Assembly (NCBI GenBank): GCA_016190505.1
Contig: JACPQM010000021.1
Span: forward strand, 1-59,152
DNA: 59,152 bases
From: Chloroflexota bacterium
Lineage (GTDB): Bacteria > Chloroflexota > Dehalococcoidia > JACPQK01
Direction of reading: 5' to 3'
Position 1 is the first letter of the stretch. Every line of letters begins with the position of its first letter. The notes under the pieces were generated by a model. That model saw only the letters and a program-made list of their open reading frames with translations. It did not search any database and was not told the origin of the DNA. Shown here piece by piece: positions 49,614 through 59,152 of this stretch. The position numbers were made by a program, and so were the translations under genes.

Positions 49614-51347
49614 ATGGCCGAGGTCGCCCGCCGCATAGACCTCAAAGACATGCCCGGGGTGTTCCACAAGACGCTGGCTGTGCCCCAGGGCTACCAGGCT
49701 CTTCTACTGGGGGGGGAGAAACATGACGCCACACTGGGACCGGGCAGCTACCGTTACGGCTCCGGCGATGCCCGGGGCATGGCCGCCGTCCTGGTGCCCG
49801 AGGCGGAGCTCCCCCTCCAGTTCTCCGTGCGGCGGGCACTGACCAGCGATCCCTTTCCCATTGACCTGGACTGCCAACTCGTAGTCCAGGTGCAGGCGCC
49901 CCTGCTGTTCTACATCCAGGCGGCCAAGGGTGCCTCCCTGTTCACCCAGGAGCAGCTCGTGGCCCTGCTCCAGAACGAAGCGGAGGCGCTGGCCCGCAAC
50001 TTCGTCGGCCATCACAATGTCCAGGAGTGGCAAAACAGCCTGGCCCTTCAGGGCCAGTTAGAGTTGGAGCTAGACCAGCACCTCGCTCGCAGCCTGTCGG
50101 CCTGGGGCCTGCGCGTGGCCCGAGTGACCACGGTCAACTACCGCTGCCAGGCCCAGGACAAGCTCACCGGCATCAAGGCGGATTACGCCCTCCAGGTCAG
50201 CCAGGAGGAGGCGCAGCTTCAGGGCCGCAAACGCCTCTTCGAGGTCCTGACCGAGAGTGAGCTACAGTCCCTGGTCGAAGAGACCGAACGCACCGCGGTC
50301 TTCGAGAAGCGCACTGCGCTCTGGGAGCGGATGCGGCGGGCGGTCGTCGCCGACCACATGGCCTCGGTACGCTCAGAGCAGGATCTGGCCGATTTCCTAC
50401 GCCAGGTTGACCGTGACCAGCTTCTCAAGGAAAGCGAGCTCGAGGACCTCAAGGCCACCCTGCGCCAGGCCCGGGAGGACAAGGACCGCGCCTATGCCTT
50501 CCTGGTCTACCGTACCGAGATGGAGCGCGACCACGAGCTCAAAAAGCTGGAGCTGGCCCAGCGCAAGGACCTGGCCCTGGAGGAGATCGCCTTCGAGGTT
50601 GATCTGGAGCGGCGCAAGCTGGAAGGGCAGTGGCAGGTCGAGCTGCAGCGCCTCGACTTCCAGCTTGAGAAGGACCGGCGCCTGGCCGAGGTCCGCCGCC
50701 AGGAGGCGGAGCGGGAGCGCCAGGCCCAAGAGGAGAAGGAGTTGGCCGCCGCGCGCGCCGGCGCCGCCATCGCCGACATTGAGCGCCAGCAGCTCAATGC
50801 GGAGGTTGAGGACGCCCTCAACTGGTACGACAGGTACAAGCGCATGAAGGAGCAACAGCGCCTCCAGCAGGTCATGGACGACCTGGACGGCGAAGAGCGG
50901 AAGATGGCGCTAGACCTGCGGCGACAGGAGGGCGAGCTGGAGCTGCGCCTGCGGGAGCAGCGCGAGCGGCACAAACAGGACCTGGAGCGCATTGACACCC
51001 TGTCCAAAGTGTCGGTGGAGGTGCTGATGGCCGTCTCTGGCCCAGAGCAGGGCCGCATGCTGGCGGAGCTGGCGCGCACCCGGACGTTGGCCGGTTGCTC
51101 GCCGCAGCAGATATTGGCCATGCAGGCCCAGGGCGACCCGCAGGTAGCGCAAGCCCTGGTGGAGGTGACCAAGGCCATGGCCGCCACCGGCCAAACGGAG
51201 ATGTACGAACGCCTGGTAGCCCAGGTCAAGGACAGCGCCCAGGCCTCTAGAGAGGACTACCAGCGGAACGTTGCTATAATGGCGGAGATGTTCCACAAAG
51301 CCATGGACACCATGAAGGATACGGCCACCGCGTTCGCGCGTGCGTAG
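49614..51347 (+). CDS. SPFH/band-7-like N-terminal domain plus ~350-aa Glu/Arg/Leu-rich coiled coil (flotillin-like architecture); paralog L1
   Basis: 577 aa; 'VPQGYQALLLGGEKHDATLGPGSY' resembles the band-7 'V.QGE.AVV.R.GK....LGPGLH' entry motif; long heptad-repeat region; ~60% identical over the coiled coil to the 54805 protein. Confidence 0.7.
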   Translation: MAEVARRIDLKDMPGVFHKTLAVPQGYQALLLGGEKHDATLGPGSYRYGSGDARGMAAVLVPEAELPLQFSVRRALTSDPFPIDLDCQLVVQVQAPLLFYIQAAKGASLFTQEQLVALLQNEAEALARNFVGHHNVQEWQNSLALQGQLELELDQHLARSLSAWGLRVARVTTVNYRCQAQDKLTGIKADYALQVSQEEAQLQGRKRLFEVLTESELQSLVEETERTAVFEKRTALWERMRRAVVADHMASVRSEQDLADFLRQVDRDQLLKESELEDLKATLRQAREDKDRAYAFLVYRTEMERDHELKKLELAQRKDLALEEIAFEVDLERRKLEGQWQVELQRLDFQLEKDRRLAEVRRQEAERERQAQEEKELAAARAGAAIADIERQQLNAEVEDALNWYDRYKRMKEQQRLQQVMDDLDGEERKMALDLRRQEGELELRLREQRERHKQDLERIDTLSKVSVEVLMAVSGPEQGRMLAELARTRTLAGCSPQQILAMQAQGDPQVAQALVEVTKAMAATGQTEMYERLVAQVKDSAQASREDYQRNVAIMAEMFHKAMDTMKDTATAFARA

Positions 51348-51434
51348 GGGGTGCCCTCACTCCTTCGGCGGGCTCAGGACAGGCCTCGCCCTCTCCCAGG
51401 GGGAGAGGGGAGGGTGAGGGCACAGGAGACTGAT

Positions 51435-51842
51435 ATGGGCGAAGAGAAGACCAAGACCAAGCTGGACGAGTACGGCCAACTGGCGGGTGGCTACGACCTG
51501 GGCCAGGCCCGGGCATGGGCGCTGGCGCACGCCAAGCGGAGCCTGCGCTACCGCATGCCCAGCGCCGAGGACCTGGAACTGGCCTGGGAGGTGCCCAGTT
51601 GCCGCTTTGTCGAGGAGCAGGACTGCTACGAAGTAGCCGTTTCAGTGTACCCCCAAGAGGTGGCCTATCGTCAGAAGGCGGAGTGGGTCTATCATATCAC
51701 CGCGCTCGGGGAGCTCATGCCGGGCACACCCGTGCTGCGCACGCCCCTGGGGCTACGGGAGCCGGAGCGCGGGGCGCCAGGCGGGCTGCCCCTCGGCGCC
51801 TGGATGGGTCCCGGCGGCTGGATGCGCCGCGGCGGGTGCTAG
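51435..51842 (+). CDS. Small protein with a novel conserved ~110-aa N-terminal domain; paralog S1
   Basis: SD 'aggaga' then ATG 51435; 'KLDEYGQLAGGYDLGQARAWALAHAK...LAWEVPSCRFVEEQDCYEVAVSVYPQE...EWVYHITALGELMPGTPVLRTPL'. Confidence 0.62.
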   Translation: MGEEKTKTKLDEYGQLAGGYDLGQARAWALAHAKRSLRYRMPSAEDLELAWEVPSCRFVEEQDCYEVAVSVYPQEVAYRQKAEWVYHITALGELMPGTPVLRTPLGLREPERGAPGGLPLGAWMGPGGWMRRGGC

Positions 51843-58747: not shown

Positions 58748-58875
58748 CACGAGGATTCGGACATGCCCCCTGACATGACACGCCGTAGGCCGGGGGATTG
58801 GGGGTGTCCCCCAAAAACCCTTACACGACTGGCCCCCATGGTGCTCCAGACCATGGTAGCACGAGGAATTCGATA

Positions 58876-59152
58876 TGCCCCCCGATGAAATGAAGCCTGA
58901 GGAAAAGAAGGACCTCTTTGACGCCACCGGCGAGCTCAAGGGCGGCTATGACATGGGCATGGCCCAGGCCTATGCCCTGGAGCACGCCAAGAAGACCCAG
59001 GGCGAATACGCAGGCCAGGGCAAGCAGCGAGTCCCCCTCATCTGGAACATCGAGAGCTCTCGCTACGACGAGGACGCCGAGTGCTTCAAGGTGGTCCTCT
59101 CGTGCCACCCAGAGGGAGTGCCAGCGGAGCAGAACGGACTCTGGGAGTACCA
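58876..59152 (+). CDS. Paralog S4 (5-prime partial; runs off the window end)
   Basis: 'GGYDMGMAQAYALEHAKK...LIWNIESSRYDEDAECFKVVLSCHPEG...GLWEY'. Confidence 0.6.

Follow-up and report, generated by a model that had tools for sequence, protein, structure and literature searches.

Gene Content of the Locus

The window analysed here, a contig of 59,152 nucleotides (JACPQM010000021.1, assembly GCA_016190505.1, locus tags HYY01_032xx, ~64% G+C), belongs to a metagenome-assembled genome (MAG) of a Chloroflexota bacterium, and its right-hand end carries three genes for large SPFH/Band-7 proteins (L1 to L3) together with four genes (S1 to S4) whose products share an N-terminal domain. All seven open reading frames (ORFs) named by a first-pass annotation made from the sequence alone were recovered on the plus strand in the mechanical ORF list. 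Their order is L1-S1-S2-L2-L3-S3-S4 rather than the alternation of large and small genes that had been described, and the ATG of S4 lies at 58875, not at 58876.

L1 (49614..51347, +; 577 amino acids, aa) was assigned to the SPFH/Band-7 proteins by Pfam, an AlphaFold2 model and Foldseek; its Pfam Band_7 match covers aa 23-172 (49680-50129), and its long helices extend over aa 197-464 (50202-51005). S1 (51435..51842, +; 135 aa from an internal ATG, the mechanical ORF opening at GTG 51351) consists of the S N-domain (aa 1-106, 51435-51752) and a short Gly/Pro/Arg tail, and S2 (51998..52975, +; 325 aa) joins an S N-domain (51998-52321) through a Pro/Thr-rich linker to an RDD membrane domain recognized by Pfam (aa 191-308, 52568-52921). 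L2 (53231..54787, +; 518 aa) is a divergent SPFH paralog, characterized by Pfam, hhalign and hydropathy, in which an SPFH-like N-terminus (Pfam aa 39-206, 53345-53848) is followed by an internal hydrophobic hairpin (aa 299-348, 54125-54274) and then by a conserved helical C-terminal region.

Only 18 bp separate L2 from L3 (54805..56763, +; 652 aa), an SPFH and coiled-coil paralog of L1 that ends in a zinc ribbon, CxxC-10-CxxC (aa 627-644, 56683-56736). S3 (56783..58747, +; 654 aa) follows 20 bp past L3 and contains an S N-domain (56783-57106), a single transmembrane helix (aa 122-140, 57146-57202), Pro/Thr linkers, a PsbP/DcrB-like ectodomain found by Pfam (aa 393-539, 57959-58399) and further uncharacterised domains. 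The fourth S paralog, S4 (58875..59152, +), runs off the end of the window and is cut short after 92 aa of its N-domain; its ortholog in a close relative from groundwater (locus L001) is 452 aa long and includes both a transmembrane helix and an ectodomain.

SPFH Identity of the L Proteins

As first proposed, L1, L2 and L3 are SPFH/Band-7 proteins. In Pfam, L1 matches Band_7 (PF01145) with 35.2 bits (E 1.6e-8), above the cut-off of 23.6, while L2 (22.5 bits, E 1.3e-4) and L3 (20.7 bits, E 4.6e-4, together with weak zinc-ribbon matches) fall slightly under it. The membership of the latter two follows from their homology to L1: L3 aligns collinearly with L1 over ~587 aa at 42% identity (396 bits), and the N-terminal ~180 aa of L2 correspond to the region common to the L1/L3 profile (hhalign probability 98.9%, E 1.8e-17), beyond which L2 diverges. 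The long Glu/Arg/Leu heptad region once ascribed to all three proteins holds for L1 and L3 and not for L2, where the shared N-terminal part is succeeded by the hairpin.

The AlphaFold2 model of L1, built from 19 homologs with a predicted local distance difference test (pLDDT) score of 71, displays a beta-rich SPFH region (aa 1-195), very long helices (aa 197-245, 290-316, 322-384 and 394-464) and a helical, conserved C-terminal region; that is, an SPFH alpha/beta fold and the coiled coil that follows it. When this model was compared with the PDB by Foldseek, the top matches were all subunits of SPFH cages (E 2e-10 to 1e-6, probability 1.00), namely human stomatin (2e-10), prohibitin, erlin, HflK/C, flotillin and QmcA of QmcA-YbbJ, with major vault protein lower in the list, and more than 500 columns were aligned with chains of the flotillin complex (9bq2, 9l3g). 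A sequence search of the PDB with L1 gave no match, nor did any of the three L proteins match PADLOC-DB v2.

With regard to membrane attachment, hydropathy analysis identified no transmembrane segment in L1 and no credible one in L3, so both lack the typical N-terminal SPFH membrane anchor, and L2 has an internal hairpin only. This hairpin comprises two segments within aa 299-348 and is more clearly hydrophobic in L2 orthologs; judging from the sequence, L2 is probably the membrane anchor of the L set. The zinc ribbon at the end of L3, which had been recognized at the outset, is kept in L3 orthologs. The S and L domains show no homology to one another (hhalign probability 1%).

A New Family of N-Terminal Domains

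The S N-domain spans ~105 aa and is 36-54% identical among the paralogs of the window, each of which matches the profile of the family at E 1e-38 to 1e-55, well past chance. The first-pass annotation could place this domain in no known family, and our searches bear this out: no match was obtained in Pfam, NCBIfam, PADLOC or PHROGs, and the profile returned nothing from the PDB sequences (best E 0.25). Among 1.84 billion cluster representatives searched with HMMER, 45 matched the domain at E<=1e-3 and 29 at E<=1e-10. At least two of the weak matches (P0040 and P0046) are repeat-protein false positives; the same two account for the matches in multiple stretches, and no Rosetta-stone fusion of S with L was found. 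A metagenome scan with the S profile added at least one locus among the matches listed. On these profile searches, the S N-domain is a new family that no described family fits. The motifs YD[LM]..A[RQ]A..L.HA, L.W[EDN][VI] and PGTP[VL]LR hold across the paralogs as originally noted, except that the G of the proposed 'GEW' is A in S1. The shared domain is thus real, although its bearers are not all small proteins, as the 654 aa of S3 make plain.

An AlphaFold2 model of the S N-domain, based on 8 sequences (pLDDT 74.8, predicted template modelling score 0.63), shows a single helix packed against a four-stranded sheet, preceded by an N-terminal peptide that is disordered yet conserved (K-K-D-x-F-D..G.L..GY). 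The fold is a generic alpha+beta one of cystatin/PepSY/NTF2-like type and not an OB-fold. Together with the topology of the S proteins, whose domain lies N-terminal and not C-terminal to the membrane segment, this model rules out an NfeD/OB-fold identity, in keeping with the initial remark that the S proteins do not resemble NfeD partners. A PepSY identity was also rejected, there being no Pfam PepSY match at the level of sequence profiles.

Nearly all members of the family begin with the domain; next comes a transmembrane helix, in some cases separated from it by a stretch rich in Glu and Lys, and the C-terminal remainder is variable. The C-termini of the 45 scanned members contain 52 different Pfam families, among them Flg_new_2, FGE-sulfatase, PD40 propellers, BNR/sortilin, TPR, RDD and PsbP. 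In the window, the RDD domain and the single transmembrane helix plus ectodomain reported for S2 and S3 were both verified: S2 matches RDD (PF06271) with 88.1 bits (cut-off 24.1, E 8.4e-25) and has the hydrophobic segments, and the S3 ectodomain matches PsbP (PF01789) with 43.6 bits (cut-off 23.5, E 4e-11) and DcrB-like (PF08786) with 34.8 bits (cut-off 27.2, E 2e-8). A metagenomic protein of 419 aa (P0043) has a Ser/Thr kinase N-terminal to the S-like domain, then a transmembrane helix and a Pro-rich tail, a layout that puts the S domain next to the membrane, at a signalling position.

S1 differs from this plan in having no transmembrane segment by hydropathy. Its C-terminus (51816-51839) is a Gly/Arg-rich tail ending in RRGGC-COOH, a motif kept in P0002 and P0004 (as RRGGWC in P0004), and this cysteine tail could serve in lipidation, metal binding or membrane association. 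S arrays are also found elsewhere. In locus L006 (4730-16389), and likewise in L007-L009, S genes of one orientation encode the same N-domain with differing C-termini (FGE-sulfatase, PD40/Tricorn, Flg_new_2 and others). The MAG of the window itself contains at least two further S paralogs on other contigs, P0018 (HYY01_14895) and P0020 (HYY01_09365), whose look-up led to one 1.5-kb contig.

The S N-domain is predicted to be cytoplasmic and hence to lie in the same compartment as the L proteins, because it has no signal peptide and precedes a signal-anchor helix, and because the remainder of the S proteins is made up of Pro/Thr linkers and modules of ectodomain type. Comparison of the window with L001 shows how differently the two parts of these proteins have been conserved. 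Identity is 81-94% in the S N-domains and 81-86% in the L proteins, and the N-domain of S3, at 93.5%, is the most conserved segment of the locus, above any L protein. The S3 ectodomain, by comparison, is 64% identical with a domain-sized indel, and in place of the RDD C-terminus of S2 an unrelated soluble domain is found in L001. A conserved N-domain with divergent or replaced C-termini is the pattern to be expected of a constant interaction module that is combined with exchangeable functional modules.

Conservation of the L1-L2-L3-S Module

Homologs of L1 are few, and beyond its close relatives they are full-length proteins at ~40% identity. These belong to a second, distant clade (clade B), in which the order L1(-cyclase), L2-like and L3-like with a C-terminal zinc ribbon was observed in L013, L014, L019, L020 and L021 and in the GTDB matches L015-L017. 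All clade-B loci come from Chloroflexota, SAR202 included, and their L proteins are about 28-45% identical to those of the window (about 40-42% for L1).

The first-pass annotation interpreted the locus as an L+S unit that had been duplicated and diversified in situ. This interpretation was overturned by the orthology pattern: in reciprocal BLAST comparisons, L1 of the window scores 459 bits to clade-B L1 versus 396 to L3 of the window, L3 scores 525 bits to clade-B L3 versus 387 to L1 of the window, and L2 scores 199 bits to clade-B L2, with one-to-one L2 orthologs found in L013-L017. Among the candidates that its filter retained, a search with the L2 profile matched the window and its close relative. 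The order L1-L2-L3 is preserved in the window and in L001, L013, L014, L015 and L017. Since every one of the three L genes has a one-to-one ortholog in clade B, the triplication is, by sequence comparison, ancient and older than the split of the two clades, which rules out a recent tandem amplification and makes L1-L2-L3-S the conserved unit. Within it, S3 occupies the ancestral position, and S1 and S2 (between L1 and L2), S4 and S5 are lineage-specific extras.

Adjacency of L and S genes, whose recurrence in other genomes the initial proposal had named as a check, was found in the distant clade, where an S gene follows L3 in L013, L014, L015 and L017. Counting the window and L001 (whose order is L1-S1-S2'-L2-L3-S3-S4-S5), an S-type gene stands directly after L3 in 6/6 intact triads (window, L001, L013, L014, L015, L017). 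The S-like domains of clade B are homologous to that of the window (hhalign probability 97.8%, E 1e-12), and none of the genes flanking the module is common to the two clades, nor even to the window and L001. The co-occurrence holds in one direction: every intact triad has an S gene, but S arrays and solo S genes exist with no L gene nearby, and the link, as far as gene order tells, is conserved from the L side and not from the S side. To date, the module has been found only in Chloroflexota, in uncultured lineages and with a narrow distribution.

Several clade-B copies are damaged by insertion sequences (IS; rve/HTH_Tnp_1) located after L1, with L2 truncated or lost and one L gene frameshifted (L019 12153-13537; L020 12271-13400; L021 9601-11254). 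In two of them (L019 and L021), an S-type gene is still next to the remaining L gene. In L001, the minus strand just upstream of L1 contains a divergent S-like ORF (5311-5736; 141 aa), which matches the S profile over aa 61-137 with E 3e-10 and has no counterpart in the window.

Cyclase Fusions and Gene Neighbourhood in Clade B

L1 orthologs that are ~42% identical end in a class III adenylate/guanylate cyclase domain (PF00211, E 9e-19). PF00211 was detected on ten L1 homologs (P0051-P0059 and P0062), and the cyclase-bearing orthologs are encoded in L013 (9971-12418), L014, L015, L017, L019 and L020. Indeed, most of the full-length L1 homologs at ~40% identity end in a cyclase domain, and many of the fused proteins also have an N-terminal zinc ribbon, with a GGDEF match in one case. 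L1 of the window has no cyclase domain by Pfam. The clade of the window lacks the cyclase, and its S genes have multiplied (S1-S4 in the window, S5 in its relative and at least two elsewhere in the MAG). Literature searches directed at SPFH-cyclase and SPFH-defence systems yielded no description of the L1-L2-L3-S module or of SPFH-cyclase fusions, within a searchable literature of incomplete coverage.

The neighbourhood of the module is syntenic within clade B. Purine-biosynthesis genes lie upstream in all loci, and a convergent operon of Prok-JAB, ThiF (E1) and E2-CBASS type lies just downstream of the S gene (L013 19984-22418; L014 21026-22430; L017 18195-20574; L019-L021). An LmuB-like SMC ATPase (PADLOC E 1.9e-25) is encoded upstream in L014. 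These neighbours, and the restriction-modification (R-M) genes of L001, probably reflect shared synteny rather than a functional link.

Proposed Function and Alternatives

We propose that the locus encodes a hetero-oligomeric SPFH platform on which receptor-like proteins of the S family dock, and which transmits or organises envelope-related inputs; to this overall picture we assign a probability of about 0.5. In such a platform, L1 and L3 would alternate as subunits of one hetero-oligomer, shaped like a cage or a ring and seated on the cytoplasmic side of the membrane, since two collinear, co-encoded paralogs are the pattern of HflK/C, PHB1/2, Flot1/2 and erlin1/2. The L2 hairpin would anchor the assembly in the membrane, and S proteins perhaps help to hold L1 and L3 there. 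The S N-domain may act as a constant docking module by which S proteins plug into the L scaffold, leaving their interchangeable C-termini (RDD, PsbP/DcrB-like, beta-propellers, FGE-sulfatase-like, TPR and others) exposed to the membrane or the exterior, where they would sense or bind; a repertoire of ectodomains that includes FGE-sulfatase, PD40, BNR and TPR is of binding or sensor type and suggests a receptor-like character. Signals from the envelope or from outside the cell, or the state of assembly of the cage itself, could then be relayed to a cytoplasmic output, which in the sister clade (clade B) would be the nucleotide cyclase. Given that L1 of this clade ends in a class III cyclase, the assembly would most likely be a signalling or organising platform.

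A more ambitious form of the proposal describes an undescribed transmembrane signalling device, in which S receptors dock on the SPFH cage, the state of the cage controls the cyclase fused to L1 in the sister clade, and the S arrays are exchangeable sensors that share the cage as their one transducer. We regard this device as unlikely at present. If the S domain is a docking tag, it would represent a new way to couple surface receptors to an SPFH scaffold, and the cyclase fusions would offer an enzymatic read-out of cage function. The S domain family would also annotate several dozen 'hypothetical' Chloroflexota proteins.

Several observations weigh against the platform proposal. The hairpin of L2 in the window is moderately hydrophobic, with Kyte-Doolittle values of 1.5-1.8. 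Since L1 of the window is without the cyclase, a signalling output of this particular locus is only putative. IS elements break up several clade-B loci, which makes the module dispensable in those populations. Most S-family genes are not adjacent to L genes: eight to nine tandem S paralogs occur in L006-L009 with no L gene within 10 kb, L010, L022 and L024/25 carry solo S genes, and, conversely, the more distant L3-like gene of L018 (an Anaerolineae MAG) has no S gene after it. The case for binding between S and L proteins draws on gene order in effectively two clades, each of which is internally syntenic.

One alternative is a client-organising or quality-control scaffold, that is, a flotillin/HflKC-like microdomain that stabilises, clusters or turns over S proteins as type II surface proteins, with the S N-domain as recognition tag and no information passing inward. 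Known SPFH assemblies serve membrane proteins as scaffolds or as compartments of a chaperone-like kind (PMC2636767; PMC11222466), L1 of the window has no enzymatic output domain, and one L set beside many S paralogs per genome, with ectodomains that are enzyme-like or binding, fits a scaffold with many clients. However, the cyclase fusion on L1 orthologs and the kinase-S fusion point to signalling, and the module encodes no protease (FtsH or a ClpP-type NfeD). We consider this account unlikely.

If there were no functional link at all, the S genes would encode unrelated surface proteins and would stand by chance beside L1-L3, a flotillin-like set specific to the lineage. The many S genes away from L genes and the small number of independent adjacency observations, the loci within each clade being syntenic relatives, speak for this explanation. 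It is harder to reconcile with an S gene directly after L3, on the same strand, in two clades with about 28-45% identity of their L proteins and entirely different flanks; with the 20-bp gap between L3 and S3; with the S3 N-domain as the most conserved segment of the locus (93.5%); and with the S gene that L019 and L021, though damaged by IS elements, still keep beside their remaining L gene. Chance adjacency is, in our judgement, quite unlikely.

Lastly, the locus had also been suggested as a stress or defence module. Were it to act against phages or in abortive infection, perturbation of the envelope during infection would be sensed by the SPFH assembly, which bears a cyclase in some lineages, and S proteins would be surface sensors or decoys. 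In favour of this reading are the type I R-M system of L001, the LmuB-like SMC ATPase of L014 (E 1.9e-25), the JAB/E1/E2-CBASS-type operon of L013, L014, L017 and L019-L021, the patchy distribution with differing flanks in close relatives and IS-eroded copies, the swapping of C-terminal modules in S proteins, and a weak match of the clade-B cyclase to PycC (1.8e-8). Nevertheless, this explanation finds no direct support and is the least probable one, because the suggestive neighbours occur in other genomes only and, in clade B, are accounted for by shared synteny along with the same upstream purine-biosynthesis genes, PADLOC gave no match for the L proteins or the S domain and a sole one for the RDD part of S2 (PD-T4-6, 1.6e-5), the PycC score is at the level of any class III cyclase (Pfam Guanylate_cyc 9e-19), the module encodes no cyclic-nucleotide-binding effector as a Pycsar system does, the flanks in the window are of housekeeping or envelope type (methyltransferase, YfhO- and PTPS-related membrane proteins, molybdopterin oxidoreductase), and no relatives of L or S were found in viral contigs (IMG/VR).

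Flanking Genes and Other Features of the Window

Upstream of L1, the minus strand encodes a class I S-adenosylmethionine (SAM) methyltransferase (48499-49392) and two large polytopic membrane proteins, PTPS_related and YfhO-like, which are putative glycosyltransferases (44517-48267); a molybdopterin oxidoreductase is also among the flanking genes of the window. The corresponding upstream position in L001 is occupied by an SDR gene and a type I R-M system instead. A Pro/Thr-rich protein of 797 aa is encoded at 42096-44489; it contains a segment resembling MgtE_N (E 3e-11), matches CARDB weakly and has a C-terminal transmembrane helix, and by eye its C-terminal domain looks like ectodomain segments of S5 of L001 and of the S-like protein of L014. 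An origin of the module in a phage or mobile element finds no support, given these ordinary chromosomal genes in the flanks, the missing IMG/VR relatives and the lack of significant PHROGs matches.

A candidate sigma-70-like promoter and possible operon start (49380..49408, +) was located by a consensus scan with 9/12 matches, a weak assignment by consensus only, in the 220-bp gap between L1 and the divergent methyltransferase gene. Palindromic hairpins resembling repetitive extragenic palindromic (REP) elements, of the form CCTCTCCC-N3-5-GGGAGAGG, are present in four copies in the window, versus 0 expected by shuffling. One lies directly upstream of S1 (51384..51409) and has the core CCTCTCCC-N3-GGGAGAGG, and a second in the S1/S2 intergenic region (51959..51984), so that the copies bracket S1; the further copies are at 1957-1977 and 33573-33591. 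Similar G/C-rich hairpins occur upstream of L2 (53088-53115 and 53176-53208). No riboswitch or regulatory RNA came close to Rfam thresholds across 48800-59152.

Comparison With Known Systems

SPFH proteins are ubiquitous, and recent cryo-EM work shows that they form membrane cages. The role of these cages and the recruitment of their partners are best understood in the FtsH and NfeD cases. In the classification of Hinderhofer et al., the prokaryotic proteins form 12 SPFH subfamilies, of which only SPFH1, SPFH2 and SPFH5 have a conserved NfeD partner and two small ones, SPFH8/9, are predicted to be soluble; in NfeD itself, three hydrophobic stretches at the N-terminus precede an all-beta domain at the C-terminus (PMC2636767). 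In contrast, S proteins have an N-terminal alpha+beta domain, one transmembrane helix and an ectodomain, that is, the reverse topology and another fold.

Flotillin-type proteins (SPFH2: B. subtilis FloT/YuaG, E. coli YqiK and the eukaryotic flotillin-1/2, with the NfeD partners YuaF and YqiJ) have the same architecture as the L proteins, consisting of SPFH domain, long coiled-coil helices and C-terminal region. They resemble the present module further in the two collinear paralogs that suggest a hetero-oligomer and in the small membrane protein as operon partner. However, L1 and L3 are without the N-terminal anchor, a third paralog (L2) with an internal hairpin is present, and no flotillin-type Pfam family other than PF01145 was detected on the L proteins at E<=1.

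HflK/HflC, prohibitin-1/2 and erlin-1/2 are likewise paired, collinear and co-encoded SPFH paralogs, and they are strong structural matches of the L1 model. These proteins are anchored via an N-terminal transmembrane segment, and HflK/C faces the periplasm and encloses FtsH. The module described here differs from them in encoding no protease, in having three paralogs instead of two, and in its much longer helices.

The zinc ribbon at the end of L3 recalls YdjI of the ydjFGHI/PspA operon. Proteins related to YdjI are annotated as SPFH with a C-terminal zinc ribbon (COG4260), and many of the group end in this way. Unlike that operon, the module contains no PspA/ESCRT-III gene, the L proteins match PF01145 only and no Band_7_1-type model in Pfam, and YdjI lacks the long coiled coil of ~270 aa. 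The membrane localisation of B. subtilis YdjI requires YdjG/H, which are described as integral membrane proteins (PMC8581546), and it is by this description that they are compared with the S proteins. YdjI thereby offers a precedent for an L1/L3 assembly that would be held at the membrane by L2 and perhaps by S proteins.

From the side of the S proteins, the closest resemblance in layout is to single-pass receptors of monoderm bacteria (Ser/Thr kinase-transmembrane-ectodomain proteins and anti-sigma factors), which share the arrangement of a small, putatively cytoplasmic module, one transmembrane helix, a Pro/Thr linker and a variable ectodomain; in one S member, the S domain is even flanked by a kinase on one side and the transmembrane helix on the other. 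The difference is that the predicted cytoplasmic module of S proteins is new and has no catalytic or sigma-binding signature. PepSY, cystatin-like and NTF2-like domains are similar to the S N-domain at the level of the fold only (5-16% identity). PepSY domains are typically extracytoplasmic, whereas the S N-domain is predicted to be cytoplasmic. What stands out here is a set of three SPFH paralogs, two of them anchor-less, alongside a non-NfeD partner family with swappable domains; an SPFH scaffold operon is a known kind of system, and the new element is the family of partner domains.

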